Source: Candidatus Brocadiaceae bacterium (GTDB lineage Bacteria > Planctomycetota > Brocadiia > Brocadiales > Brocadiaceae). From it: 32,000 nt of DNA. The DNA is taken from assembly GCA_031316145.1 (NCBI GenBank), contig JALDQZ010000004.1, forward strand, positions 233,958-265,957, given 5' to 3'. Below are positions 16,466-31,396 of this stretch, piece by piece (the first letter of the stretch is position 1; the number at the start of each line of letters is the position of its first letter). The translations under genes were made by a program, and so were the position numbers. The notes beneath the pieces were generated by a model, which saw only the letters and a list, made by a program, of their open reading frames with translations, ran no database searches and was not told where the DNA came from.

Positions 16466-18880
16466 ATGATATTTGTTATCCTTTTTATAATTATTTCAAC
16501 AATAACAGGATTTTTACTTACGTATTTTCTTGCATCTTCGTACTCATTGTTTGAAAGGATTGCCTATGGTTTAGTTATTGGTCTGGGTCTTCATACCTGG
16601 GTTGTTTACCTTTTTTCATTTCTTTGGGGACTCACGTTCATAAGCATATTCATTACCATTGCTGTATCACTTGTGTTTTGTTCACTATTTACAACCGTAC
16701 AATGGAGTAGCTTTAAACGTGATGTCCTTTTTGAACTGAGACGCACAAAAAATGATTTCCTTTTAAACAAAAAATCCTGCTTTGTCCACATTGCAGTCTT
16801 TTCCTTCTTTACTACGATCTTTTACCGTCTGTTTTACAGAATAATACTCTGGAAAAATGATGGAATGTACATCGGACTGCCAAATAATTACGGTGATTTA
16901 CCCCTTCATTTGGGTTATATCACATCCTTTGTGTGGGGAAATAACATTCCCGCGCAAGATCCTTCGTTCGCAGGCGAAAAACTGAAGTATCCCATCCTCT
17001 CCGATTTTTTGTCCGCCGTATTTCTTACCATGGGCGCTGACTTCAAGCAAATACTCTTCATCCCGGGACTCTTGTTAAGCATTGGTTTTTGCTGTGTTCT
17101 CTATTACTTTACGTATCGTCTGACAAAAAGAAGGCTTGCGGCAATTGTTTCATTGTTTTTATTCTTTTTTTCCGGCGGGTTTGGCTTTTACTATATCATT
17201 CAGGACTTTACAAATTACTCACATGGTTTTTGGTCGTTCCTTACCCATTTACCACGAGACTATACAAAAATCACATCCTTTAATTACCACTGGATTACAC
17301 CATTAACATGCCTTACTATACCCCAGAGATCATTTCTTTTTGGATTTCCTTTTACGATTTTAATCTTTTCTTTGTTATACACAGGTATTGAAGAAAAAAA
17401 CCGGAGAGAATTTCTCTTTGCCGGTATCCTTGCCGGTGCGCTTCCTTTCCTTCATACCCATAGCTTCCTTGCCATGTTAATGGTTACCATACCCCTGGGC
17501 TTCATATTTTGGAACTGGAGGAATTGGCTTGCATTCTTTCTCCCCGCTTTTGTCCTCTCGTTTCCTCAGGTATATTGTCTTTCAAGCAACGTTCGTGGTG
17601 GAAGTTTTTTTGCATTACACACGGGATGGATGGCGGGAAAAGAAAATTTTTTTTGGTTTTGGTTAAAAAATACCGGTCTTTTCTGGTTCGCGGTCTTCGG
17701 TGGATTTGCAATTGTTTTTACCGCAAACAAAAAATTAACCAACCGGGTCCTGATGCGTACGGGACTATTCTCACTACCATTTTTATTCCTTTTTCTCTTA
17801 CCGAATTTTCTCCTTTTTGCTCCATGGGCATGGGATAATATAAAGATTTTCATTTATTGGTTTCTCGGTACCAGCCCGCTTGCGTCTCTCGCTCTAATTC
17901 GCCTATATGAGTACAAACGCCTTACAATTATCTCGAAAACATCCTTTTGTATTCTCATGCTTTCTTTAACCGCTGCGGGAGGAGTTGATATTTTCAAATA
18001 TGCCATTGTCCCTGTTAACGGATGGAAAGAATTTAGCCGTGAAGAAATAATGCTTGCAAAACGTATTTCAGAAGAAACCCCTGTAAACGCGATTTTTCTC
18101 AATGCTCCCATATTCAATCACCCTGTGTTTCTCTCCGGAAGGATATCATTGATGGGCTACATGGGCCACATATGGAGCCACGGCTACAAGGATGGTTCCG
18201 GTCGCGAGCAAGATATCAAAAAAATGCTCCGTGGTTCACCCGAAGCGCTATCGCTTATTAACACATATAAACCTCACTATGCGATCCTAGGTCCGCATGA
18301 AAAACGCGTCGGGGCAAAAAGAATATTTTTCGACAAAAATTTTACGTGTGTTATTACTACAAAAAAATATAGAATTTACGATCTTACTAAAAAGAACCAA
18401 TTTAGCACGCAAAAAAACGAAGGGTTTTCCGATAAGACTGAGCACCATTCTTTAAACCAAAATAATGGACTTCTCGTTTGTTATTATGATACGATATCTT
18501 GGGAAGGTGATCCCATATTTGAAGAAATTAACCCGTCTATTACTATTAATTATTCTGATGAAGATGAAAAACCGATCAATAGCCCTTTTAGTGTAATCTG
18601 GAAGGGATATATAGATGTTGATGTTTCCGGCAAGTATACATTCAGGCTGACCTCCGACGATGGCTCCTGGCTTTACATTGATAATACCATGGTGATAAAT
18701 AACGGCGGACATCATAGCAGGAAAACTCTCGAAGGAACCATAACCCTGAACAAGGGCAAACACACAATTATGGTTAAATATTTTGATGCCGGGGGAGGCG
18801 CCATTCTCAGTCTCTTATGGAAACCACCAAATGCCTCAGAATCAGAGATTCCTGCGCATGTTTTGTCTCCATCTCAATAA
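16466..18880 (+). CDS. Polytopic membrane protein (GT-C-like glycosyltransferase suspected) with C-terminal PA14 domain
   Basis: 804 aa. The first ~510 aa are a run of hydrophobic helices (judged by eye), with a loop motif NNYGDLPLHLGY. A soluble region follows, and the last ~137 aa are PA14-like. The GT-C assignment rests on architecture and on paralogy of the C-terminal module with the next gene. Confidence 0.65.
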   Translation: MIFVILFIIISTITGFLLTYFLASSYSLFERIAYGLVIGLGLHTWVVYLFSFLWGLTFISIFITIAVSLVFCSLFTTVQWSSFKRDVLFELRRTKNDFLLNKKSCFVHIAVFSFFTTIFYRLFYRIILWKNDGMYIGLPNNYGDLPLHLGYITSFVWGNNIPAQDPSFAGEKLKYPILSDFLSAVFLTMGADFKQILFIPGLLLSIGFCCVLYYFTYRLTKRRLAAIVSLFLFFFSGGFGFYYIIQDFTNYSHGFWSFLTHLPRDYTKITSFNYHWITPLTCLTIPQRSFLFGFPFTILIFSLLYTGIEEKNRREFLFAGILAGALPFLHTHSFLAMLMVTIPLGFIFWNWRNWLAFFLPAFVLSFPQVYCLSSNVRGGSFFALHTGWMAGKENFFWFWLKNTGLFWFAVFGGFAIVFTANKKLTNRVLMRTGLFSLPFLFLFLLPNFLLFAPWAWDNIKIFIYWFLGTSPLASLALIRLYEYKRLTIISKTSFCILMLSLTAAGGVDIFKYAIVPVNGWKEFSREEIMLAKRISEETPVNAIFLNAPIFNHPVFLSGRISLMGYMGHIWSHGYKDGSGREQDIKKMLRGSPEALSLINTYKPHYAILGPHEKRVGAKRIFFDKNFTCVITTKKYRIYDLTKKNQFSTQKNEGFSDKTEHHSLNQNNGLLVCYYDTISWEGDPIFEEINPSITINYSDEDEKPINSPFSVIWKGYIDVDVSGKYTFRLTSDDGSWLYIDNTMVINNGGHHSRKTLEGTITLNKGKHTIMVKYFDAGGGAILSLLWKPPNASESEIPAHVLSPSQ
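18467..18877 (+). other. PA14 domain-coding segment of the 16466..18880 gene
   Basis: GLLVCYYDTISWEGDPIF...PFSVIWKGYIDVDVSGKYTFRLTSDDGSWLYIDNTMVINNGGHHS...GKHTIMVKYFDAGGGAILSLLWKPP. This is the classic PA14 pattern: W-G-Y, tandem-Asp DDG segment, Y-I-D-N, and G-G-x-x-x-L-x-W. Confidence 0.8.
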
Positions 18881-18897
18881 ATTTATAAAGAAATTCT

Positions 18898-19010
18898 GTA
18901 ACTATTCAGCGTAATATATCAAACTACCAGAATACGCATTCGGGTAAGAAACCAGACAGAACCCTGTCAGGGTTAAAACACAGACTGAAATGTTTGCGCT
19001 GAATAGTTAC
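18898..19010. mobile_element. 113-bp MITE-like non-autonomous element (14-bp perfect TIRs, 8-bp target-site duplication GAAATTCT)
   Basis: GTAACTATTCAGCG (18898-18911) is the exact reverse complement of CGCTGAATAGTTAC (18997-19010). GAAATTCT directly flanks both ends (18890-18897 and 19011-19018). The element has no coding capacity. Its interior carries the AACCCTGTCAGGGTT palindrome (18960-18974). Confidence 0.75.
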
Positions 19011-19092
19011 GAAATTCTTTTATTTCATTACTCCTTAAAATACGTATGACTACATTGAAGCCATTTTAAAAAAAGGAACCGGACCTTAATTC

Positions 19093-21087
19093 ATGGAAAA
19101 GTATAAAAAACAAAATATTTATGTATGTATCTCTTTTTTTGTGCCCGTATTCATTGCTTCTTTCATTCGCTTCTGGGATCTGGACCTCAGGCCTTTTCAT
19201 GCCGATGAAGGCGTAAACAGCAATTTTTTATTAAATTTATATAATAAAAACTACTATCACTATAACCCTGCTAATTACCACGGACCATTCCTTTATTATA
19301 TTGGATTAATTCCTTTCTATATTTTTGGAATTTCAGACTTCTCTTTTCGGCTTATGCCGGTTCTGTTTGGCATTATGAATGTTGCCCTATTGTATCCTTT
19401 AAGGAGAAGACTGGGGAATATGGGCATTTTGACGGCGGGATTGCTTGTTGCCCTGTCTCCTGCGATTTCTTTTTTTTCAAGAGACACCATCCATGAAACA
19501 TATTTGATCTTTTTTTCACTATCGGTAATTGTTTCATTCTTTCTTTATTCGGAGACAAGGAAATCACTATATATCTATTTCGCGGTTTCGAGTCTTGCCT
19601 TCATCATCACGATAAAAGAAACGTATATAATTACTTTTGCTGTTTTTATACTATCGTTAGCGCTTGCATATTGTTATGAAATTGCATTCCTTTCAACAAA
19701 AGGAACCAGAGTCTTTGCGATAAAAAACATACTCACCGCATTTGTCACAAACTGCAAGCAGCATACATACACTATAGGAATAAGTATCGGCATTTTTCTC
19801 CTGATCAATTTTTTATTGTTTTCCTCTTTTTTTACATATTTTGAAGGTATTACCGGTATATTAACTACCTTGAAAATCTGGACAAAGACAGGCACTCATT
19901 CCGGCGGGCATGCCAAACCATTCATTTACTATTTTACCTTACTGCGTAAATTTGAACTCCCCATACTGGTTATGGGTATTATGGGGTTTTATTATGCCTT
20001 CCGGCAGGGAAATAAATTTACCACATTCTTATCTTTTTGGACTATTTTCATATACGTTATCTACTCCTTCATTCCATATAAAACACCCTGGTTAATTGTA
20101 AACATTCTTCTGCCATTGTCTATCATGGGAGGTATTTTTATTCATGGCGTTTTCAAAACAATCAGGAAAAAATGGCATTATGTGACCTTTTATTCACTCT
20201 ATGTATGCATTTTTGGGTTTTTTGCGTATCAGTCCATTCTATTGAATTTTGTCAATTATGATGACGAACGCTACGAATTGGTATATGTTCAAACCAAAAG
20301 AGATATCTACAACCTCATAGACAGAGTGGAATCCCTTGCCAAAGCATATGGAAACGATTTGACTATTAACATTGCCTCAAAATCATACTGGCCGCTACCC
20401 TGGTATTTCAGGAACTATAAAAATGCCCAGTTTTGGGGTCGTACTATCAGCAATCCAAATGCACCAATTATTCTTGTAGACAAGAATAATGAAGCAGAAT
20501 TAAACAAACGATTAAAAAGCGAATACGTAAAAGAGCGTTTTGTTTTGCGCCCCGGTGTTTGGATCACCGCATATTTCCAGGAGGGCCTTTACGAGGCAGT
20601 ATTTGGAAAAAAATCCACAAAAAAGGAGGAGGACCTACCGATTATTATATCGGAAAGAGAACTGACTCAAGGATTAAGTGTAAGGCGTTTTTATAATATC
20701 GATTGTATCGGAACGCCTTTCTCTTCAGGAATAGAAAAAGAGTCTATTTCATTTTCCTATAATGACGAAACAAAGAAACCGTATAGATCACCTTTCGCCA
20801 TCGAGTGGGAGGGTTATCTTTCCGTTCCAAGAAAGGGTCTATACCAGTTTGCGACAAGGTCTGACGACGGTTCTGAAGTTTATATTGATAATAAACTGGT
20901 TGTTGATAATGGCGGGCCTCACGCATTACGCTATATTTCAGGGATTGTACCACTGGACGCGGGTTTTCATGCGCTCAGAATAAAATACTTCGATATAGGA
21001 GGCGGTGCTGTTATGGAATTTTTATGGAAACCACCTGAGGAAAACGAAACGCGGGTGCCACATACAGTACTCTTTCACAGGAAATGA
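19093..21087 (+). CDS. GT-C-fold glycosyltransferase-like membrane protein (PMT/ArnT-like, TIGR03663-like) with C-terminal PA14 domain
   Basis: 664 aa. The N-terminus reads RFWDLDLRPFHADEGVNSNFL...YNPANYHGPFLYY, an acidic first-loop DE motif typical of GT-C enzymes. Many TM helices follow. The soluble C-terminal part contains YWPLPWYFRNY, and the last ~138 aa form a PA14 domain. Confidence 0.7.
   Translation: MEKYKKQNIYVCISFFVPVFIASFIRFWDLDLRPFHADEGVNSNFLLNLYNKNYYHYNPANYHGPFLYYIGLIPFYIFGISDFSFRLMPVLFGIMNVALLYPLRRRLGNMGILTAGLLVALSPAISFFSRDTIHETYLIFFSLSVIVSFFLYSETRKSLYIYFAVSSLAFIITIKETYIITFAVFILSLALAYCYEIAFLSTKGTRVFAIKNILTAFVTNCKQHTYTIGISIGIFLLINFLLFSSFFTYFEGITGILTTLKIWTKTGTHSGGHAKPFIYYFTLLRKFELPILVMGIMGFYYAFRQGNKFTTFLSFWTIFIYVIYSFIPYKTPWLIVNILLPLSIMGGIFIHGVFKTIRKKWHYVTFYSLYVCIFGFFAYQSILLNFVNYDDERYELVYVQTKRDIYNLIDRVESLAKAYGNDLTINIASKSYWPLPWYFRNYKNAQFWGRTISNPNAPIILVDKNNEAELNKRLKSEYVKERFVLRPGVWITAYFQEGLYEAVFGKKSTKKEEDLPIIISERELTQGLSVRRFYNIDCIGTPFSSGIEKESISFSYNDETKKPYRSPFAIEWEGYLSVPRKGLYQFATRSDDGSEVYIDNKLVVDNGGPHALRYISGIVPLDAGFHALRIKYFDIGGGAVMEFLWKPPEENETRVPHTVLFHRK
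20671..21084 (+). other. PA14 domain-coding segment of the 19093..21087 gene
   Basis: GLSVRRFYNIDCIGTPF...PFAIEWEGYLSVPRKGLYQFATRSDDGSEVYIDNKLVVDNGGPHA...GFHALRIKYFDIGGGAVMEFLWKPP. It aligns residue-for-residue with the PA14 segment at 18467-18877. Confidence 0.8.
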
Positions 21088-21134: not shown

Positions 21135-21878
21135 TTATTGATAGTGCCCCTGATAATCTTTGATCCTTATATTGACCAGGTCCTTAAACATCTGTAAAGA
21201 GTGTTTTATTGGGCTAACTGTGCTTAACGCAGAATTTTCCCAACGAATGGGCACTTCTTTGATTTTATAATGATGTTTTTGCGCAAGATACAGGGCTTCA
21301 ACGTCAAAGGAAAAACCGTGAATCCTGCATCTGTTAAATACCTTTTTCGCAACATCCTTCTTGAATCCTTTAAACCCGCATTGCGTATCTATAATCCCTT
21401 TAAACAATAGTAAATTCACCATACCGTTAAAAATTTTCCCCATTTTTTCTCTATACCAGGGTTGACGAATGATAATATCAGCCCCTTTTTTACTTCTGGA
21501 CCCGATTACTACATCATAACCATTTATAAGATACAACAGACATTTATCAATTTCTTCAATTGGAGTTGAGAGGTCCGCATCGGTAAAAAAAATATATCTT
21601 CCCTCTGCCGATAACATGCCTCTTCTGACGGAGTACCCTTTTCCCATATTCCTCCTATTCGGGAAAACAACTATGTGTTCCTTTAAACGCATATAATCAT
21701 GTATCACCTGTAATGTATTATCCGTGGAACCATCATCTATAATGATAATTTCGTAGGAAAATTGTTGTTTGTCAAGATACTCGCAAATCTTCTCCAGGGT
21801 GGGTAGGACCCTCTTTTCTTCATTATAAGCAGGTATAATTAATGAAAGATAACAGGTGGTCAATGTTTGTATACCCAT
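21135..21878 (-). CDS. GT2 polyprenyl-phosphate glycosyltransferase (dolichyl-phosphate beta-glucosyl/mannosyltransferase-like)
   Basis: 247 aa. LSLIIPAYNEEKRV, IIIDDGSTDNT, FFTDADLSTP (the DxD region) and QCGFKGF. This matches the DPM1/ALG5/ArnC/GtrB-type soluble GT2. Its ATG shares one base with the gspF stop (TAATG at 21880-21876). Confidence 0.8.
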   Translation of the reverse strand: MGIQTLTTCYLSLIIPAYNEEKRVLPTLEKICEYLDKQQFSYEIIIIDDGSTDNTLQVIHDYMRLKEHIVVFPNRRNMGKGYSVRRGMLSAEGRYIFFTDADLSTPIEEIDKCLLYLINGYDVVIGSRSKKGADIIIRQPWYREKMGKIFNGMVNLLLFKGIIDTQCGFKGFKKDVAKKVFNRCRIHGFSFDVEALYLAQKHHYKIKEVPIRWENSALSTVSPIKHSLQMFKDLVNIRIKDYQGHYQ

Positions 21879-23080
21879 TAAAATTTTAGATCGTTGACAC
21901 TGAGTATTGCGGTTAACATGGAAATTACGATTACACCAATAACAGCGCCCATCAACAATATAAGCACCGGTTCCACCATGGTAACAAGTCGTTTCATTCT
22001 CTGTTCCACATCAGCATCAAAATTATCCGCCACTTTGAGAAGCATCTGGTCAAAAGTACCTGTTTCTTCACCTACCTTCAATAAATGAACTGCAAGTTCT
22101 GGTAAATAACCCCGCTCTGCAAGTGAAACAGTAAGGCTTGCGCCTTCTTTCACATTCGCCTTAACATTTCCCAGAATATTCACCAGATGTTGATTGGATA
22201 GAACATCTTTCACAATATCCATTGATTTAAGCAAAGGCACGCCGTTTTCCAATAAAGTGCCAAGGGTTCTGGCAAACCTTGCTATTTGCATTCTCCACAA
22301 AAGATCGCCGAACAGTGGTAATTTTAATTTTTTTTGATCTATTTTAATGGCCGTTTTACGCTCTTTCATAGCTCTTTTATATAAAAAAACCGCAGCAATA
22401 AGCAGAACAATTGCCATCCAGCCATATTTTATAGAGTACTGACTTACTCCCATGAGGAGCATTGTCGAAAAGGGAAGCGCAATCCCCATGCCTTCAAAAA
22501 TTTGTGTAAATTTTGGTATAACATAAACAATGAGAGCCCCCACTGAAATAATACCCGTACTACTCAATAAAAGCGGGTAGATCATTGCAGAAATAATTTC
22601 ACCTTTTACTTTTTGCAATCTTTCCTGAAATGACCCCAACCTTTTCAATACCTGAGGCAACACACCGCCTTCTTCTCCCGCGCGTATCATATTAATATAG
22701 ATAGTAGAAAATAGTTTGGCATGGTTCTCAAGCGCTTCGGCAAAGGGCTTCCCCGATTTAATACCCTTCAGAAGATCCTCGATAACGGTTTTCAATGCAA
22801 TTTTATCATTACCGGCCACTAATATGGACAAACTTTTATCGAGAGGGATACCACCTTCAAGTAAAGTTGACAATTCCTGAGTAAAGGGTAATATAGCTTT
22901 TTTATTGGCACGATTCAGGAAAAAACCAAATTTTTTATGCTTATCTACCTGATAAATATGTAAAATAATATGACCTGATCTACGAAAATCCTTGATCAGA
23001 TCGGTTTTATTATCAGCCTCTTTTTCCCCTTCAACAATGCCGCTTGAGTTTGTCAATAATTTATATTTATAGGTATGCAT
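21878..23080 (-). CDS. gspF: Type II secretion / type IV pilus platform protein (GspF/PilC family)
   Basis: 400 aa with two T2SSF repeats (FTQELSTLLEGGIPLDKSL... and FARTLGTLLENGVPLLKSM...) and three TM segments. Confidence 0.85.
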   Translation of the reverse strand: MHTYKYKLLTNSSGIVEGEKEADNKTDLIKDFRRSGHIILHIYQVDKHKKFGFFLNRANKKAILPFTQELSTLLEGGIPLDKSLSILVAGNDKIALKTVIEDLLKGIKSGKPFAEALENHAKLFSTIYINMIRAGEEGGVLPQVLKRLGSFQERLQKVKGEIISAMIYPLLLSSTGIISVGALIVYVIPKFTQIFEGMGIALPFSTMLLMGVSQYSIKYGWMAIVLLIAAVFLYKRAMKERKTAIKIDQKKLKLPLFGDLLWRMQIARFARTLGTLLENGVPLLKSMDIVKDVLSNQHLVNILGNVKANVKEGASLTVSLAERGYLPELAVHLLKVGEETGTFDQMLLKVADNFDADVEQRMKRLVTMVEPVLILLMGAVIGVIVISMLTAILSVNDLKF

Positions 23081-23086
23081 ACACCA

Positions 23087-23728
23087 TTATTTCTTTATAT
23101 TTGAACGCATAACGACAACATGCTCTTCACCATACCAATCAAGTAAAATACGATCCTCTTCTATATTCTTTACCTTGTAGTCTGCGATCTCTTCTCCTTC
23201 CTCAATAAAGACAAAGTTTTTATTGTTATTTTTCTTGTCAGGATTAACAATTAACGCTTTTTTGGTATCACCAAAAATTACAATTCCGTGTAATGTAATC
23301 TCCATCGGTTTCCCTTTCGGTTTCTCTTTCGGTTCTAATGTTTGTTTCGATTTTGCTAGATTGTTTTCTTTTTTTTGCGACACTTCAAGTGGTGGAATTT
23401 TGCTTTCTTCAGGAGCATGCCATGTTTGGCGGCCTGGAGAAAAAGGATTGTGCGTCAGAATACCTTCATACTGATCAATCAATTTCCTGTCTTCTTCTAA
23501 AAATATTAACGACGTTTGATCTTTAGAATGCTCTCCACTATCCTTTATTGATTCAATTGTATCTGTCGGCGGATAATAAACAAACTTTACACACAAAACA
23601 GCAAGACCAACGACACAAACAAGTAAAACAAGATTTATAATGGGCAAATAGTGTTTCCAGCGTCTCAACTGTTTCCCGGCATCTCCCATGAAACGCAACA
23701 GCGCTGTTTTATTTATGGTGAATTTCAT
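23087..23728 (-). CDS. GspC/PilP-like bitopic protein of the secretion operon
   Basis: 213 aa. It has an N-terminal TM anchor (LPIINLVLLVCVVGLAVLCV), a Lys/Glu/Pro-rich linker and a C-terminal small beta domain (ITLHGIVIFGDTKKALIV...EIADYKVKNIEEDRILLDW). The beta domain resembles the secretin-interacting HR/PilP domain. Confidence 0.4.
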   Translation of the reverse strand: MKFTINKTALLRFMGDAGKQLRRWKHYLPIINLVLLVCVVGLAVLCVKFVYYPPTDTIESIKDSGEHSKDQTSLIFLEEDRKLIDQYEGILTHNPFSPGRQTWHAPEESKIPPLEVSQKKENNLAKSKQTLEPKEKPKGKPMEITLHGIVIFGDTKKALIVNPDKKNNNKNFVFIEEGEEIADYKVKNIEEDRILLDWYGEEHVVVMRSNIKK

Positions 23729-23733
23729 GTTTT

Positions 23734-24336
23734 TTATAATTTTTTTTCTATGGCGGCGATCGCAGTTAATGTAGAACTCATAGATGCTCCTTTTATTACA
23801 TTCAATCCTATGGTTTTTATTCTAAGGTTGTTGAGAAAAAGAAGTTTTTCATTATTGCATTCTATATCGTATAAGAATTTCTGCATTTTCTGTATGCTAT
23901 CCAAATCGCGTATTTCAAAATTAATTGATAAAGCAATCAGGTAAGGCGCTTTGTTAATTACCTCTTTTTTTAATGATGTACTCCTGGAAACACTCAATCC
24001 ATTCTTCTTTGCCAAAGTATTGACTATTTCCTGCAACTTCGCGGAAGCAAGCTCTTCTGTTTCTTCAAACAAAAATTTATCTTGCAATTGCGCATAATAG
24101 TGTTCCAGGTCTTTCACTCGTTCCTCATAGTGTTTTTTCTGTGCGACAAAAGCGTGGTATTTCCCCAACAGCTTTTTTTGTGTATCTAGCAGCTCTCTCG
24201 TCTCGTTAATTGACTTAAAAAACGGACTTATTGCAAACCTGTCAACGCCAAAATAAAGTACGACAACGGATGCGGTAACTATTAATATTTTTTCTCGTAG
24301 GTTATATTTTCCAAATATCTCAAAAAGTCTTTCCAT
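23734..24336 (-). CDS. GspM/PilO-like inner-membrane assembly protein
   Basis: 200 aa. It has a short cytoplasmic N-terminus, one TM (ILIVTASVVVLYFGV), a coiled coil and a C-terminal alpha/beta domain. Its position after the GspL-like gene supports the call. Confidence 0.5.
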   Translation of the reverse strand: MERLFEIFGKYNLREKILIVTASVVVLYFGVDRFAISPFFKSINETRELLDTQKKLLGKYHAFVAQKKHYEERVKDLEHYYAQLQDKFLFEETEELASAKLQEIVNTLAKKNGLSVSRSTSLKKEVINKAPYLIALSINFEIRDLDSIQKMQKFLYDIECNNEKLLFLNNLRIKTIGLNVIKGASMSSTLTAIAAIEKKL

Positions 24337-24339
24337 GCT

Positions 24340-25608
24340 TTATTGTTTTACCAGATTTCCTTTTATTCGAAAACTTTCCTCATCATTCCGTGTTTTTGTA
24401 ACGGGGGAGGACAAACCCACACCTGAAAAAAGCGGTGAATTTTCCAGTATTGGGATCAGGTTCGCGGAAGATTCTGCAATGCCCTCTATTTCAAAAGTAT
24501 TGTGTGTGAGGTTAATGGCCTTTGTCCATGCATTATCCGGCAACTTCTTTGCCAATTCTGAGATCGCATCAATTCTTGGAACATGTTTTTCTCTTAATTC
24601 ATTGACGTTTCTGACCGTTTCTTCAAGTATTGACATTCGCTCTTTTATTCTATCAACAACAACAACATTTCTTTTCACCGAATTTATACGGGTCTTAACC
24701 GTTTGCAAAAGAGACAGATCATTACATTTCTGGATATAAGGAATAAGAAATACAAAAAATATTAGTATCCCCGCAAGAAAACACAACAACGTCATTTGAG
24801 GGTTTAATCGCCTGTTGCGTGACTTAATCAGGCTGAGGCCGCAATGGTACGATGATAAACCATACAGCGCCGCGCCATATGATTCGGCCCCTTCATCCAA
24901 CACCCGTACCTTCTCTTTATATTCAGCGGATAAAAAATTGCCTTCGACGCCTTCTAAATAAATTACGCTCGGAGCATTTGTTTCCAAATGAGTAACCAAC
25001 CCTTCACGTTTTTTAACAACTGAAGTGCAAACCAAATGACCGTGTTCAAAAATATTATAACAATAATTGTTTGGATTCTTCGTAATCACGGCGACAGATT
25101 CATTATTTTCACCAAGAATCGGCAAAAAAGCAAATGAGGATATAATTACCCTTGAAGGTGTAATTTCCATCAGCTTCAACTTTGACAGGATGCTATCCAA
25201 CTCAATTTTTTTTACGGCAACAATGAGTACATTTGTTTTTCGTCCTATATGAGACAAGGAGTGAATATCATAATACACGTCTTCATTCGTAAAGGGAATA
25301 AAGCTGTCTAATTGATATTCAAGTGCATCCCTGAATTCTTTAAGATTAGCATGCGGACATTCTATTTCCCGTATGATACACCTGCTTCTCGGTAATGAAA
25401 GGATTGTCTCTCCAACAGGTATTCTTTGCTGTATTAATGCATGGCTTAATTGAAAGTCTTCTTTTAATAGAAAATCTTTCACCCTGAACGTAAAAGGTAA
25501 ATAGGTAATCAATTTTTTCCTGACGATTGTTAGTACAAGATCATTTCCACAGATAGACAAACCTGTAGCGCTGGGAAAAAACATATTAACAAATGGTACA
25601 TTTTGCAT
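24340..25608 (-). CDS. GspL-like protein (PilM-like cytoplasmic domain + TM + PilN-like periplasmic domain)
   Basis: 422 aa. The N-terminal actin-like PilM/GspL region is followed by a TM segment (MTLLCFLAGILIFFVFLIPYI). Then come a coiled coil and a C-terminal PilN/GspL periplasmic-type domain (NTFEIEGIAESSANLIPILENSPLFSGVGL). Confidence 0.6.
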   Translation of the reverse strand: MQNVPFVNMFFPSATGLSICGNDLVLTIVRKKLITYLPFTFRVKDFLLKEDFQLSHALIQQRIPVGETILSLPRSRCIIREIECPHANLKEFRDALEYQLDSFIPFTNEDVYYDIHSLSHIGRKTNVLIVAVKKIELDSILSKLKLMEITPSRVIISSFAFLPILGENNESVAVITKNPNNYCYNIFEHGHLVCTSVVKKREGLVTHLETNAPSVIYLEGVEGNFLSAEYKEKVRVLDEGAESYGAALYGLSSYHCGLSLIKSRNRRLNPQMTLLCFLAGILIFFVFLIPYIQKCNDLSLLQTVKTRINSVKRNVVVVDRIKERMSILEETVRNVNELREKHVPRIDAISELAKKLPDNAWTKAINLTHNTFEIEGIAESSANLIPILENSPLFSGVGLSSPVTKTRNDEESFRIKGNLVKQ

Positions 25609-25729
25609 TCAGCAGCACCTTATTACCTTAAAACAAAGAAAAGACGTTATTCATTTGTGTATAACAATGACGAAATTTCTATCGTTTTTCCGTATTCAGC
25701 CGGATAAATATTGTAGTGCAATGTAACGA

Positions 25730-26791
25730 TTATTCCGGGTATACGGCAACGATTCTAAAATGTTGTATCCCCTTTAAAACAATCATCTTGTATGAATTTT
25801 GTATGCCGTCTGCGGAAGATATTGAATTGATCGTTACATAATTTGAATCGTATACCGTCAAAAAGTCCAGTATTTTGTGAAAATTCGATCCAACAATACC
25901 AAAACTTCTAAATAACTCCTTCAGTTCACCAAATTCTTTAATTTTTCCCTGTTCCTCTCTGAGTGTTATTATTCCTTCGGCTATTTCCGGAGTAATCAAA
26001 GGCACGTATTGTAACACCTCCCTGGAAGCGTAGTTTACATTTATTTTTCCAGACCCATACATCGTTACATGTTCCCGTAGCATTTCATATATTTTTGGTG
26101 TAACACCTTTCACAAGGGCTAATTCCTCAATAGTTTCAAAGGGACCATTCTTCGCTTCGTATGGATCTGGCAGCGTCGCATAATAATCACTCTCCGCACC
26201 GTTGATATGGTGTAAGCTGTCCTTATCTACCCAATCTAATATAGAACCTGTTATCGTATCAGCATCGATTTCGCTGATAGTTAAAGAAGTAAGAAATTTG
26301 ATAAACCCTTCTCTTGTATCATCTTTTATTCCATTTATATTTATTTTTCCATTTTCATCACTAATGTATACATCGCAATTCCCCCCCCCTATTTCAACAG
26401 AATAGGGATTACTGCTCGGCCCCCACGGTTTATTTTTCAATCTTGAAAAAAGGTCTTCCTCATCCCCTTCTTTCTCTATTATGGCATCCCCCCCATCGTT
26501 TGTTTTCTTTTCCTGCTCTTCCGGTAGTAATATCATCTGTGTTGCATATAAACAAGCGCCTCGTGCGGCGTATATATTTTTTATACGCTCCGAATATGCA
26601 ATTTCTGTCTTTATCGCTATACCCGTATCAAGGGAAAGATTTAAGGAAATAAAGCCTAATATGACTATTGCCCATAAACTAAAAATGAGTACATAGCCAT
26701 GATTGGTGACAAAAATTCTTGATCCTCTCCGTTTTTTGATATGGACAATTTTATCGCCACAGGAATTTTTTCGATGATTTTCTCTTTCCAT
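25730..26791 (-). CDS. gspK: Minor pseudopilin GspK
   Basis: 353 aa. It has an N-terminal hydrophobic helix (GYVLIFSLWAIVILGFISL) and a helix-hairpin-helix-like segment (KINVNYASREVLQYVPLITPEIAEGIITLREEQG) characteristic of T2SS protein K. The only canonical start upstream of the helix is ATG 26791, which gives a 127-nt overlap with the preceding gene. Confidence 0.7.
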   Translation of the reverse strand: MERENHRKNSCGDKIVHIKKRRGSRIFVTNHGYVLIFSLWAIVILGFISLNLSLDTGIAIKTEIAYSERIKNIYAARGACLYATQMILLPEEQEKKTNDGGDAIIEKEGDEEDLFSRLKNKPWGPSSNPYSVEIGGGNCDVYISDENGKININGIKDDTREGFIKFLTSLTISEIDADTITGSILDWVDKDSLHHINGAESDYYATLPDPYEAKNGPFETIEELALVKGVTPKIYEMLREHVTMYGSGKINVNYASREVLQYVPLITPEIAEGIITLREEQGKIKEFGELKELFRSFGIVGSNFHKILDFLTVYDSNYVTINSISSADGIQNSYKMIVLKGIQHFRIVAVYPE

Positions 26792-27441
26792 AGTAAATCT
26801 GTACCCTGTATAATTTCGGCGCTTAACTTATTAGCAACCAAACTGTTCCCATTCTGAGATGCTTCTTCCAACACATCCAGATATGCGAATACAATTTTAT
26901 CACAATCTTTGAAAAACAGTATCTCATCATCTTCAGCAATGAATATACTTTGAAATTCTTCAGCTATTTTCTTCACTGCCGTCGGATGCACCCTCTTCTC
27001 AGAATAAATAAGATCCCATAAACCATCATCGTTTATTTTAACTTTATAAAATGCAAATACCAAACCTTGTGCATAATGCTTCTTTAACGAAAGAGGCGAA
27101 ACAAATGTCACAGCATCCTTTTCTCCCAGAAAGTAAGTGGTCTTTGCCTCATCCGTGGTCAGAAGATTAGTTTTTGAAAATTTCTGCGCATATAAGGAAG
27201 AAGATTGTTGCCAGAAAAAATCATAGGCAGCCTTTTCTCTGGTAGAATCATTAAACCACTCTTCCTCCCTACCCATTGAAAACAGTCCGATTCTTATTGC
27301 ATAGGCCCCTGACAGAATCAATAGAGTGCCGATAAAAATGGCTATGAGGAGTTCGAATAATGTGAAACCATGCTTGTGCTGAGTGAAGCAGTGTGTGGCC
27401 TCAGAAGTTTTGCCGACTGTTTGATGATTCTCCATGCACAT
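26665..27441 (-). CDS. Pseudopilin with prepilin-type N-terminal cleavage/methylation motif (GspJ-like)
   Basis: HKHG|FTLFELLIAIFIGTLLIL has the G|FTLxE signature with Glu at +5. Size (258 aa) and position before gspK fit GspJ. The leader is unusually long (~25 aa). Confidence 0.6.
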   Translation of the reverse strand: MCMENHQTVGKTSEATHCFTQHKHGFTLFELLIAIFIGTLLILSGAYAIRIGLFSMGREEEWFNDSTREKAAYDFFWQQSSSLYAQKFSKTNLLTTDEAKTTYFLGEKDAVTFVSPLSLKKHYAQGLVFAFYKVKINDDGLWDLIYSEKRVHPTAVKKIAEEFQSIFIAEDDEILFFKDCDKIVFAYLDVLEEASQNGNSLVANKLSAEIIQGTDLLWKEKIIEKIPVAIKLSISKNGEDQEFLSPIMAMYSFLVYGQ

Positions 27442-27925
27442 CCTTTTCGCCGTCTTCCCGGTCCAATTCCGATGCTGAATCCTCCTCTGTATCCGAAAAA
27501 AACAGCGTGTTTATGTTTATCCCTTCGATATGTGTACGTAATGAGATGATACCCCCGGGTGGTGTATTATTTATCAAACTCTTTTCCATGAAGACTGGAT
27601 CTACAAGTAATTTTTGCTTAAACTCCTTTAATGTATCAATTTCTACTACTTCCCACTGAACACCATCTTTTGTTATACCCTTATAAACCTTTCTCTCGTT
27701 TAAAGGTATAAACTGTTCTCCCAGTATTCCCAGGAACGCTTCTTCCGTTTTTAATCGAGCGAAAAGCAGAGATTTTGCGTGTGAATCCATTTTGCCCTTT
27801 AACCTGGCGGAATTCCCTATCAAGTTAAAAAATATGCCTAGGGAGATACCGACAATCGCCAGCGTAACCATAACCTCAAGGAGGGTAAATCCATATCGTT
27901 CCTTTATCACAATCCATTCAGTCAT
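27401..27925 (-). CDS. Pseudopilin with prepilin-type N-terminal motif (GspI/H-like) and acidic C-terminal tail
   Basis: KERYG|FTLLEVMVTLAIVGISLG matches the prepilin motif. A small globular part follows. The C-terminal tail DTEEDSASELDREDGEKD is atypical. The ATG overlaps the gspD stop (ATGA at 27925-27922). Confidence 0.6.
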   Translation of the reverse strand: MTEWIVIKERYGFTLLEVMVTLAIVGISLGIFFNLIGNSARLKGKMDSHAKSLLFARLKTEEAFLGILGEQFIPLNERKVYKGITKDGVQWEVVEIDTLKEFKQKLLVDPVFMEKSLINNTPPGGIISLRTHIEGININTLFFSDTEEDSASELDREDGEKDVHGESSNSRQNF

Positions 27926-29958
27926 AATTTAGCCGATTGTACTAACAACGGTTCTATCTGTCTCAATTTTTTTTGAAAAGCGCTGGTAAGAGAATCCGCT
28001 TCCTCCGCGGTGTTTGCAATGTATGGTGTTATCAACATTATTAATTCAGTCCTTCTTTGAGAAGTGCCTATTGACTTAAAGAGATATCCCAATAACGGAA
28101 TGTCGCCCAGGACCGGTATCTTACTGATGCTCTTTTCGGTCTTTTGTTCGATGATGCCTCCAAGGCTTATTGTATGGCCGCTTTTTATCACGAGGGAGGT
28201 TTCCGCCTGACGGGTTGTAAATGTCGGTGAATCGGCTACTCCTGTTGTTGTTGTCTCCGCGTTGCTCACTTCCTGATTCACATCCAACGTAATAAAACCA
28301 TTCTCCGCGATATGGGGAGTCACCGTAAGGATAATCCCCGTATCACGGTATTGAACCTGTTCAAATGTTACAGTCGTACCTGATTGTTGCCCGGAACTCG
28401 AAAGGATGGGAACCTCATTACCAACCTGTATGCTTGCAGGTTGTTCATCCCGAACAAGGATGTGTGGCGCCGACAATATCCTCGTATTAGAATTTGTCGC
28501 AACGATATCTAATAAAATCTCATAATTACTTTTAGAAAATGATAAAGAAGGCACTCCGCTTGTCTGTTGCAATTCTCCCAATCCCTTTAATTTTAAGCTT
28601 CCCATATCCCACGACCACGAAGAGTTGTACTGCAAAGTATCATTCAAGTCAACTTCAATAATCAGAACTTCAATAAATACCTGTTGTGGGGTAGCATCTA
28701 ACGCCTCGATGATTGCTTTTAGCCCCTTATATTGACTGGGCAAAGATTTAACAACGATTGAATTCGTTTCTGGATCGGTAACGATCTTCATCGATTCAAT
28801 CTGTTCCTTCCCTAGAAATTTCGGCTGTGCCGCAATTTCCTCTCTATACATTTGTGTTAATACCGCTAAAATTGTTTCCGCCTTTTGGTGTTGCACTTTA
28901 TAAATAAAGACCTTTGATTTTTCGTCCAATGCCATAGGAGGAACATCTATGTTATTTATCCAAAGATCAATTTGTGGGAGGAGTTCCGGCAATCTCGTAA
29001 CCGCGAGCAACTTGTTTGTATCAGAAAAAGGTATGAAGTTAAACTCACCATTGTCACCAACCGATGCACCCAGCGCTTTTGCAAAGCTGACAAGATCTTT
29101 TGCCATATTTTTTGCATCAACATGCTTGAATTCATAAAATTTCAGCGCTTTCCCCGCAAAAAAGGGAACATCAAAGGTCTTAATAATAGTCAAAAGCTTT
29201 TCTATATTCGATGCATCTTCCACAATAATGAGATACTGAGAATCCTTCTGAGCAACAACATTTCCAATACCGGTCATAAACTGCTTTAACGTGCCGCTTA
29301 ATTTACCCGGATCTCCATATTGAAGCGGTACTATCTGTACGATAATATCGTGGGACCATTGAGGAATTTTATCTCCGTGAATTACTATGTTCGTTTCTCT
29401 TCGCGCTTCCGCTTTCGGTAGTACCCGGTATAAATTCCCTTCTTTTACTATCGCAAAGTTATAGATATAGAGTAATGTATTCAGCATCGAAAGGAGTTCT
29501 TCCTTATATACCTGCCCGGTAGCATGAAGATTGATTTTCCCTCCAACCCTGTTATCCAAAATATAATTTTCCTTGAGAATCTCACCTAATATAATGTGTA
29601 AAACATCTTTTAATTCCGCGTTATCAAAATTAAAGGCAATATTTACCTTATCTCCCTTATATCCTGGTTTAACAAGGGCCGGCTCCGGCTTATTATACTC
29701 TTGCGGATAAATAAATTCCTTCTGGCCAATACCCTCTTTTTTCTCATCTAAACCATCTGCTTCCGGAGAAACTTCATATTCCCATGCCTTTCTTTCAACC
29801 TCCTGCGTTGTTGTGGAAAGTGATACCGGGCTTTTAAATGGGGCATAATCAGAATGTCTTATCTGAGTTTCTTCACACCCATTAAGAACAACGATTAATA
29901 CAGGCAAACCAATGCAGAAAAAGTATTTATTCATAGACATAATGAGTAATCTTTTCAC
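27922..29958 (-). CDS. gspD: Secretin (GspD/PilQ family), probable lipoprotein
   Basis: 678 aa. N-domains are followed by the secretin core: ILSAPHILVRDEQPASIQVGNEVPI, VQYRDTGIILTVTPHI, TSLVIKSGHTISLGGII, IPVLGDIPLLGYLFKS and RRTELIMLITPYI. The N-terminus ...GLPVLIVVLNGC resembles a lipobox. The GTG start is preceded by AAGGGA. Confidence 0.9.
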   Translation of the reverse strand: MKRLLIMSMNKYFFCIGLPVLIVVLNGCEETQIRHSDYAPFKSPVSLSTTTQEVERKAWEYEVSPEADGLDEKKEGIGQKEFIYPQEYNKPEPALVKPGYKGDKVNIAFNFDNAELKDVLHIILGEILKENYILDNRVGGKINLHATGQVYKEELLSMLNTLLYIYNFAIVKEGNLYRVLPKAEARRETNIVIHGDKIPQWSHDIIVQIVPLQYGDPGKLSGTLKQFMTGIGNVVAQKDSQYLIIVEDASNIEKLLTIIKTFDVPFFAGKALKFYEFKHVDAKNMAKDLVSFAKALGASVGDNGEFNFIPFSDTNKLLAVTRLPELLPQIDLWINNIDVPPMALDEKSKVFIYKVQHQKAETILAVLTQMYREEIAAQPKFLGKEQIESMKIVTDPETNSIVVKSLPSQYKGLKAIIEALDATPQQVFIEVLIIEVDLNDTLQYNSSWSWDMGSLKLKGLGELQQTSGVPSLSFSKSNYEILLDIVATNSNTRILSAPHILVRDEQPASIQVGNEVPILSSSGQQSGTTVTFEQVQYRDTGIILTVTPHIAENGFITLDVNQEVSNAETTTTGVADSPTFTTRQAETSLVIKSGHTISLGGIIEQKTEKSISKIPVLGDIPLLGYLFKSIGTSQRRTELIMLITPYIANTAEEADSLTSAFQKKLRQIEPLLVQSAKL

Positions 29959-30196: not shown

Positions 30197-30286
30197 TGGT
30201 GCGGAAGGGGGGATTCGAACCCCCACCCCGGTATCAGCGGGACTAGCCCCTCAAACTAGCGTGTCTGCCGGTTCCACCACTTCCGC
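30197..30286 (-). tRNA. tRNA-Leu (anticodon GAG), class II with long variable arm, CCA encoded
   Basis: The minus strand reads GCGGAAG-TG-GTGGAACCGGCAGACAC-G-CTAGT-TTGAGGG-GCTAG-TCCCGCTGATACCGGGGT-GGGGG-TTCGAAT-CCCCC-CTTCCGC-ACCA. It has a 7-bp acceptor stem, a TTCGAAT T-loop and the anticodon loop T-T-GAG-G-G. Folded by hand. Confidence 0.85.
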
Positions 30287-30457: not shown

Positions 30458-31396
30458 TTACTCATCTTCCATTACGGGATTTTGCCATCGTTTTCCCGAA
30501 GGTTTATTCCAGCGAACGTCAATGCTCTTCATCCTTCTCAAATGTATTCCCTCAGATTTCGCGATACTTAACAAGTTCTGTAATTTCTCTTCATCGGATA
30601 ATTCCTTAAATTTATTACAGAGAGGTGAACAACCCCAAAGTATTTGTGTGTTGTTTTTTGTTCTCAAGACAATATCACTCTTGCCGGAATTACTTCTTTT
30701 ACAAACATTAGAAACATCAACACATATAATATTTAATATAGTATGAATATTATTTTCTCTTAAAAATTTTACCAATAGTATACCCGCCTCAATTCTCTTA
30801 TCATTCCACTTACTTCCATATAAGGGTATTTTAGATAATTTACTGCTTGTAATATAAGGACTATCGTACTCTTTATTCGGTAATGTATAATATTCCATTG
30901 GCAATAAAACACACTCGTCGTCTAAAAGATAACTATTATTTTTGCTTTTAACCAGTACAACAGGTTTTCGTAATACAAATTTTATATTGATTTTATTGGG
31001 AAATATCCTTTTTATCGATTCTACTTTTTTAACCAAAATAATTTCCTCATAAATACTTGCGATTTTATGAGTTAAATTATTTTCATACATACGGTAATGG
31101 GTATTCAAAGCAGATAAATCCTTGATATCATCAGAAAAACGACTTGTCATCCAGGAAGGAACATGAAATGAAAATGTTGACGGGCTGATTTTAAACACGC
31201 TTAAATCCGTTACAGAGTACCATATCTTCTTACACCCCCACGTTGCAAAAATTATTATGCATATCAACACAATACATTTCAACAAAAAGGGTTGTAACGC
31301 TTTTTGTAATTTATTTGTAGTCCCGAAAACACGATATATTAATTGCCTGACGTTGATATTGCCTTTTATGCTATCTTTATTTTTTTGCTGACTCAT
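30458..31396 (-). CDS. ftsQ: FtsQ/DivIB-like cell-division protein (TM + POTRA-like domain)
   Basis: 312 aa. A basic N-terminus is followed by one TM (FLLKCIVLICIIIFATWG). A POTRA-like segment follows (VKKVESIKRIFPNKINIKFVLRKPVVLVKSKNNSYLLDDECVLLP). Its position immediately after ddl, with a 20-nt overlap, matches dcw-cluster order. Confidence 0.55.
   Translation of the reverse strand: MSQQKNKDSIKGNINVRQLIYRVFGTTNKLQKALQPFLLKCIVLICIIIFATWGCKKIWYSVTDLSVFKISPSTFSFHVPSWMTSRFSDDIKDLSALNTHYRMYENNLTHKIASIYEEIILVKKVESIKRIFPNKINIKFVLRKPVVLVKSKNNSYLLDDECVLLPMEYYTLPNKEYDSPYITSSKLSKIPLYGSKWNDKRIEAGILLVKFLRENNIHTILNIICVDVSNVCKRSNSGKSDIVLRTKNNTQILWGCSPLCNKFKELSDEEKLQNLLSIAKSEGIHLRRMKSIDVRWNKPSGKRWQNPVMEDE

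Follow-up and report, generated by a model that had tools for sequence, protein, structure and literature searches.

Eight co-directional genes on the minus strand of the window (the whole 32,000-nucleotide [nt] stretch of Candidatus Brocadiaceae DNA that was analyzed, G000:C10:233958-265957) very probably belong to a complete type II secretion system (T2SS) whose genes are distributed over at least three loci. Positions are given in window coordinates unless a contig or locus is named, and the genome (G000) comprises 3.9 Mb in 15 contigs. The eight genes, at 21878-29958 in the open reading frame (ORF) listing, are predicted to encode a secretin, two minor pseudopilins, GspK, a GspL-type protein, GspM, a GspC-like protein, and GspF (Table 1). 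An H-like pseudopilin, the major pseudopilin GspG, and the ATPase GspE are encoded on contig C1, and a prepilin peptidase is encoded on contig C14. All twelve component types (C, D, E, F, G, H-like, I-like, J-like, K, L, M, and prepilin peptidase) are therefore present, and the window genes, taken together with the C1 module and the C14 peptidase, account for one full T2SS in which no part is surplus and none is borrowed except for the presumably shared peptidase. The export of a surface layer (S-layer) glycoprotein of the Kustd1514 family by this system is a possibility that is put forward with some reserve.

An earlier note on this DNA had pointed out a secretion operon with no ATPase, major pseudopilin, or prepilin peptidase and had offered three explanations: a system split across the genome, the borrowing of a type IV pilus ATPase and pilin, or a reduced variant. 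The first of these was borne out, with GspE, GspG, and the H-like protein on C1 and the peptidase on C14. A reduced variant is incompatible with the presence of all twelve component types, and borrowing is not needed, as the C1 ATPase passes the GspE cutoff and adjoins GspG; the borrowing of a pilus ATPase was dropped once this GspE-type ATPase had been found beside GspG. The puzzle of a motorless secretion machine is thereby settled: the machine lacks no part, and its genes are dispersed over the genome, a situation known among T2SSs. These genes constitute the first explicit T2SS parts list for anammox bacteria, and no description of such a system was found in the literature searched.

Annotation of the window genes

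Family scans agreed with the gene content claimed in the earlier note (gspD, two minor pseudopilins, gspK, a PilM-PilN-type gspL, gspM, a gspC-like gene, and gspF). The gspD product scored 401 bits against TIGR02517 (cutoff, 351.35) and had the Pfam architecture N0, two Secretin_N domains, and Secretin. Its signal peptide terminates in a lipobox (L-N-G-C), and the lipobox cysteine was present in 15 of 16 GspD orthologs from five families. GspD is predicted from these residues to be a self-piloting liposecretin like HxcQ.

The I-like protein contained an N_methyl motif at residues 10 to 32 (Pfam). Its strongly acidic tail, which had been singled out from the translation, comprised 11 D/E among the final 40 residues and was kept as a compositional feature within the anammox family only. 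An AlphaFold model of this protein (predicted local distance difference test [pLDDT] score, 78) showed a generic pilin fold, with a long N-terminal helix against a small sheet. A Foldseek search of the PDB with the model returned no significant match, so the protein may be either I or H. The J-like protein carried its N_methyl motif at residues 22 to 43 (Pfam), and its gene was immediately upstream of gspK in 17 of 17 aligned relatives. The long leader of the J-like protein, previously put at about 25 amino acids (aa), was about 24 aa because the only in-frame ATGs are codons 1 and 3; some relatives' J-like ORFs permit leaders of 5 to 10 aa. GspK matched Pfam T2SSK_1st (77 bits; threshold, 26) and also HHH_3.

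In the L-like protein, Pfam PilM_2 was matched at residues 67 to 195 and PilN at residues 350 to 416. A profile built from 20 orthologs matched the PilM structures 2ych and 3jc8_M in its N-terminal half and PilN (3jc8_N) in its C-terminal half. By sequence, this protein is a GspL-type fusion that is nearer to the pilus proteins PilM and PilN. Within a 201-genome sample of the phylum, matches to the L-like profile were confined to Brocadiaceae. GspM was recognized by Pfam T2SSM_b (29.8 bits; threshold, 21.7), and GspF contained two T2SSF domains (Pfam, 192 bits).

Sequence matches of the GspC-like protein were weak (TIGR01713, E = 2e-4; PDB 2lnv, E = 0.08). Its model consisted of a membrane helix and a beta domain (residues 146 to 206; pLDDT score, above 90) that superposed on the HR domains of GspC (3oss_C; template modeling [TM] score, 0.76) and PulC (6hcg_e; TM score, 0.70) and also on PilP. 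As modeled, the protein appears to carry an HR domain of the secretin-binding type. No PDZ domain was found in the GspC-like protein.

Components encoded outside the window

Profile searches with T2SSE, GspG, and A24 peptidase returned no match anywhere on contig C10, which upheld the reported lack of these three components in the window. Searches of the whole genome, proposed earlier for homologs of GspE/PilB, GspG, and PilD, located a gspE-gspG module on C1 and a peptidase on C14. Six T2SSE-family matches were obtained genome-wide, none of them on C10. Three assembly ATPases are encoded in the genome, and the C1 copy alone (G000:C1:71872-73530) passed the GspE cutoff (TIGR02533, 632.5 bits versus 630.25). 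The ORF annotated as GspG (G000:C1:73559-74005) was the one gene over cutoff in the genome (TIGR01710, 165.8 bits versus 88.85; Pfam T2SSG, 142 bits). On a single strand, C1 carries in order an S-layer gene, the H-like pseudopilin gene (labeled by position), gspG, and gspE. The sole prepilin peptidase (G000:C14:123475-124329; A24_N_bact, 120 bits; Peptidase_A24, 55.6 bits) is presumably shared with the pilus system.

An MshEN-type motif that binds cyclic di-GMP (c-di-GMP) was detected at residues 9 to 57 of GspE (L013:7870-9531, where L013 is the locus on the minus strand of G000:C1; NF053729, 50 bits versus 38). The same type of motif was present in both PilB-type ATPases encoded on contig C12, which suggests c-di-GMP control of both machines.

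Genes on contigs C8, C9, and C12 represent a separate pilus system. The genome encodes two platform proteins and two secretins. The only paralog of GspF, a PilC, is encoded on C12, where it adjoins two ATPases that scored best as PilB. Contig C8 encodes a PilM-like protein, two unannotated proteins, and an 817-aa secretin containing TPRs, and C9 encodes two PilT ATPases and two pilins. In the four-gene C8 cluster (G000:C8:453635-459521), which contains the second secretin, the PilM-like protein is 589 aa long and of the Amuc_1101 type; together with the C12 ATPases and PilC, this cluster looks like a pilus system of the sort described in Akkermansia.

Gene order and phylogeny among relatives

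Orthologs of GspE and GspF were tallied in 41 genomes of the same taxonomic order. Both were found in 26 genomes, GspE only in 1 (at a contig end), GspF only in 2, and neither in 12. The T2SS was found in 11 of the 12 genera of the anammox family. More broadly, GspD-type secretins are common in Planctomycetota, scoring over the cutoff in 73 of 201 sampled genomes.

Loci of 20 kb were compared by tblastn. The noncanonical succession D-I-J-K-L-M-C-F, as described earlier for the window, was conserved across the taxonomic order, and the two modules were adjacent in genomes of other families. In G016, D-I-J-K-L-(M)-C-F-H-G-E lies on one strand; in G013, G010, G001, and G011, (H-)G-E is convergent on F-C-M-L-K-J-I-D. 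In complete genomes of the anammox family, the distance from E to F was 0.4 to 3 Mb. Maximum-likelihood trees of GspE and GspF, built separately, recovered the same well-supported groups, with the family backbone unresolved. Because the modules are adjacent in relatives and the GspE and GspF trees agree, the arrangement reflects a simple rearrangement, which is the outcome that the earlier note had associated with a gspE-gspG module of matching phylogeny elsewhere in the genome. The T2SS is inherited vertically, and rearrangement in the anammox family (Brocadiaceae-like) has moved its two modules apart. The split is clean and lineage specific, and the sister families retain the unsplit arrangement.

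Further rearrangements were seen in individual lineages. In G018, a complete Kuenenia-like genome, the genes map to 0.49 Mb (C-F-GT2), 3.55 Mb (H-G-E), and 3.63 Mb (D to M); the D-to-F operon is broken between gspM and gspC, which brings the T2SS to three loci or more besides the peptidase. An H-like gene was located between gspK and gspL, inside the D-to-F operon, in two genomes of another family (G017, locus L112; G020, locus L114), which indicates that H moved between modules in evolution. By tblastn, no comparable gene order was found at five other planctomycete GspD loci outside the taxonomic order.

The S-layer gene and the glycosyltransferases

The S-layer gene on C1 encodes a 1624-aa protein of the Kustd1514-type S-layer glycoprotein family (NF052345, 2083 bits), a match that marks the source as an anammox planctomycete. 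A Sec-type signal peptide was read from the translation of the precursor, so that the S-layer protein has to pass from the periplasm through the outer membrane. A Kustd1514-family match was found in 22 of 47 family genomes. In 14 of these 22, representing six genera, H-G-E directly followed the S-layer gene on the same strand, with a gap between the S-layer gene and gspE of 1.3 to 3.5 kb; in six others, contigs were too short for the S-layer gene to be placed relative to H-G-E. Kustd1514 is heavily O-glycosylated (PMC5088730) and varies between strains (PMC7709395), and the export route is not named in either paper. A literature search returned no paper connecting the anammox S-layer with a secretion route.

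The C-terminal part of the S-layer protein (L013:10876-11850, about 300 residues; about 1050 to 1596 of the model) includes CarboxypepD_reg-like repeats. This part recurs in many other proteins, with 33 matches in G018; in G000, a tandem array of it lies at the end of contig C11. It may serve as a common module for anchoring at the surface or for sorting.

A second neighborhood is formed by gspF and glycosyltransferase genes. The GT2 protein encoded next to gspF matched Pfam Glycos_transf_2 (112 bits), and its best NCBIfam matches were of the ArnC, dolichyl-phosphate hexose transferase, and AglJ types. An ortholog was present in 31 of the 47 family genomes, 30 of which carry its gene directly after gspF. 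GT2 and the Kustd1514 S-layer family were both found in the same seven genera and were both missing from the same five. Orthologs of the 804- and 664-aa membrane proteins encoded beyond GT2 (60 to 71% identity) adjoin GT2-gspF in genera g2, g3, and g4. One of these two proteins (putative GT-C-PA14) was not found in five genomes of g5, g6, g7, and g23, which are four of the five genera without GT2 and the S-layer family. This matching genus-level distribution makes GT2 and the putative GT-C-PA14 proteins candidates for S-layer O-glycosylation.

A fuller proposal combines the two neighborhoods: the single anammox T2SS would export the abundant, O-glycosylated S-layer protein of the Kustd1514 type, and GT2 and the two lectin-tagged putative membrane glycosyltransferases would provide a periplasmic glycosylation step. 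This combined proposal is tentative, slightly more so than S-layer export taken by itself. If it is true, the S-layer/H-G-E and D-to-F/GT2/GT-C neighborhoods mark one S-layer biogenesis system. It offers a testable lead on two open questions in industrially important organisms, namely, the passage of the S-layer protein through the outer membrane and the identity of the enzymes that glycosylate this protein.

Alternative explanations

The eight window genes could be read as a type IVa pilus alignment complex (PilM, PilN, PilO, PilP, and PilQ with minor pilins) that uses PilB-type ATPases and pilins encoded elsewhere and serves a pilus, not secretion. Several annotations favor this reading or otherwise weigh against the T2SS assignment. 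The L-like protein resembles PilM plus PilN above any solved GspL, its profile having matched PilM and PilN structures and not GspL, and the C-like domain superposes on PilP as well. The best model for GspF, TIGR02120, scored 369 bits, under its cutoff of 424 (PilC models, 268 to 275 bits); GspK scored 83 bits against NF037980 (cutoff, 130), and GspM scored 55.7 bits against NF040576 (GspM/XpsM), slightly under the cutoff of 60. The I, J, and H labels are positional only. In PDB profile searches with the I-like and J-like proteins, matches were limited to the shared N-terminal helix, and the J label is positional for that reason. The evidence against an alignment complex came from the secretin, which passed the GspD cutoff and failed that of PilQ (188 versus 284 bits); from the presence of GspM and of GspK, a T2SS-specific tip pseudopilin; and from relatives in which the operon is contiguous with GspG over its cutoff and a GspE-type ATPase. 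In addition, the separate pilus set has its own PilM-like protein, secretin, PilC, two PilB-type ATPases, two PilT ATPases, and pilins. The alignment complex, which had also been named earlier as an alternative classification, was rejected on family scores and synteny and is very improbable.

The T2SS assignment is compatible with a second explanation that differs on cargo alone. The system has about an even chance of being a general-purpose T2SS for hydrolases or other exoproteins, in which case the proximity of the S-layer and glycosyltransferase genes would be inherited synteny without function. A number of observations point in this direction and weigh against an S-layer cargo. The T2SS is kept in all four T2SS-bearing genera without the Kustd1514 family and in other families, and it is thus older and broader than such a cargo. 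An intrinsic terminator (L013:10813-10848; 16-bp stem, 8 G-C pairs, and a T-run), 28 nt past the S-layer stop codon, divides the S-layer gene from H-G-E. The longest H-like ORF runs through this terminator, and the likely true start is a GTG at L013:10759 after AAGGAAG, giving 218 aa. The terminator and the GTG start with its ribosome-binding site downstream indicate that the S-layer gene is its own transcription unit, and a single operon of the S-layer gene and H-G-E was ruled out by this strong terminator. The adjacency is gone in 2 of the 22 genomes (G018 and G039), where the S-layer gene is elsewhere, far from H-G-E. The flanking genes are syntenic as well (dnaA, [S-layer], H-G-E, uvrA, pepA, iscU, iscS) in the family, and with dnaA next door, the adjacency could be mere descent or could reflect replication-origin gene dosage. 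Because the family backbone is unresolved, the genus-level match of GT2 and the S-layer family may reflect only one or two events. Set against these points are the need of the S-layer precursor, with its Sec signal peptide, for a way across the outer membrane in a genome with a sole T2SS; the two independent neighborhood links (S-layer/H-G-E and GT2/GT-C/D-to-F); and the genus-level match itself. A third explanation, the secretion of a polysaccharide or glycoconjugate with the help of GT2 and the membrane glycosyltransferases, or the modification of pseudopilins by these enzymes, is improbable, though less so than the pilus complex. The hps locus of filamentous cyanobacteria contains pseudopilins plus glycosyltransferases, and slime secretion in cyanobacteria and myxobacteria is secretin dependent. 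Faint matches linked the J-like protein to HpsC and GT2 to HpsE and HpsN, but they were far under the cutoffs (15.8 versus 200 bits and 52.6 versus 300 bits). The TAATG overlap of gspF and GT2, with a position kept in 30 of 31 genomes, would also fit, as would the need for secretins in slime secretion (PMC12475490). Against this explanation, no protein-secretion component is missing, the GspC HR domain included, and the T2SS persists in four genera without GT2 and GT-C genes, which makes the glycosyltransferases an add-on and not a core part.

Proposed mechanism

A mechanism can be outlined for the T2SS from established T2SS biology. The C14 peptidase would process all five pseudopilins (G to K). 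From its docking site on GspL and GspF, GspE would power the assembly of a short pseudopilus made of GspG with I-J-K at its tip, and this pseudopilus would push folded proteins, exported to the periplasm by Sec, through the channel of GspD. GspC would connect the platform to the N0 domain of the secretin. GspD would reach the outer membrane by its own lipid anchor, so that a pilotin would not be needed. The MshEN motif on GspE suggests that the process may be under c-di-GMP control. If the S-layer protein is a cargo, GT2 and the neighboring putative membrane glycosyltransferases would glycosylate it in the periplasm.

Comparison with known systems

The same twelve component types occur in canonical proteobacterial T2SSs (Gsp/Pul/Eps/Xcp), and the secretin, ATPase, and major pseudopilin described here pass NCBIfam equivalog cutoffs. 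The genes differ in arrangement, with D-I-J-K-L-M-C-F plus H-G-E in place of the canonical C-D-E-F-G-H-I-J-K-L-M, and lie in this genome at three loci rather than at a single locus in canonical order. Also unlike the canonical systems are the GspL nearer to PilM/PilN, the GspC without a PDZ domain, the lipobox secretin, and the GT2 gene overlapping the end of gspF.

T2SS genes typically form a single locus with a conserved order, and Legionella pneumophila is cited as an exception (10.1101/576694). The L. pneumophila Lsp T2SS is functional although its genes are scattered over several loci, and the system described here is likewise split. The two differ in gene partition and lineage, and here the split is family specific, with the modules adjacent in sister families.

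In Aeromonas hydrophila, an S-layer-dedicated T2SS (spsD-M) is encoded beside vapA inside a glycan gene cluster (PMC4413209). The Aeromonas Sps/Aps systems thus resemble the present case in having T2SS genes by an S-layer gene among glycan-synthesis genes and in having a Sec-dependent S-layer protein. They differ in that the dedicated Aeromonas system exists beside a general T2SS and its whole set is contiguous with vapA, whereas here there is a single T2SS in which H-G-E alone abuts the S-layer gene, with a terminator between them.

The secretin of the Pseudomonas aeruginosa Hxc system, HxcQ, carries an N-terminal lipoprotein signal and thereby dispenses with a pilotin (Viarre 2009, as cited in PMC12475490). 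A lipoprotein signal is likewise predicted on the secretin here, with its conserved lipobox cysteine. Parts homologous to type IVa PilMNOPQ are the PilM-PilN fusion, the PilO-like GspM, the PilP-like HR domain, and the secretin. In contrast to that complex, the system has a GspD-type secretin, GspK, and linkage to GspG/GspE in relatives, and the genome has a separate pilus system.

Operon structure and flanking genes

Coordinates of the operon and its neighbors are given in Table 1.

Table 1. Features of the window at and around the T2SS operon
Feature	Position	Strand	Remarks
gspD	27922-29958	-	678 aa; T2SS secretin, probably a lipoprotein (liposecretin)
GspI-like minor pseudopilin	27401-27925	-	174 aa; labeled by size and position; acidic C-terminal tail
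GspJ-like minor pseudopilin	26665-27441	-	258 aa; labeled by position
gspK, filament-tip minor pseudopilin	25730-26791	-	353 aa
GspL-type assembly protein, PilM-PilN fusion	24340-25608	-	422 aa
gspM	23734-24336	-	200 aa
GspC-like protein	23087-23728	-	213 aa; membrane helix plus HR/PilP-type beta domain
gspF, inner-membrane platform protein	21878-23080	-	400 aa
GT2 glycosyltransferase, polyprenyl-phosphate-sugar-synthase-like	21135-21878	-	247 aa
Two membrane proteins	16466-21087	+	804 and 664 aa; convergent; ORF listing
tRNA-Leu(GAG)	30197-30286	-	Upstream boundary of the operon; ARAGORN
Gene between ddl and the tRNA	30458-31396		312 aa; no family match

The tight junctions reported earlier were confirmed: D and I overlap at ATGA, and the gene pairs L/M, M/C, and C/F are separated by 3, 5, and 6 nt, respectively. 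At the F/GT2 junction, a TAATG sequence gives a 1-nt overlap, and translational coupling of gspF and GT2 is possible. The I and J genes overlap by 41 nt. K and L are separated by 121 nt, a gap absent from the earlier description.

The J and K genes overlap by 127 nt (26665-26791), and K has a single possible start codon. The tblastn match ranges of J and K overlapped in 16 of 16 relatives' loci that contained both genes, by about 50 to 130 nt overall and by about 105 to 125 nt inside the anammox family. As it is kept in relatives, the J/K overlap looks like a genuine conserved feature and not a start-codon artifact.

The flanking genes had been described as a tRNA and ftsQ upstream and a GT2 gene downstream. 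The tRNA, a tRNA-Leu(GAG), and the GT2 gene were recovered. The identity of the supposed ftsQ, which is the 312-aa gene, was not confirmed, as no Pfam or NCBIfam match was obtained even at E = 1. Reading away from the operon, the upstream order is tRNA-Leu(GAG), the 312-aa gene, and ddl. Of 11 family loci compared for ddl, the 312-aa gene, and gspD, 8 kept this arrangement, and the 312-aa gene was kept at that position across the family with 57 to 65% identity.

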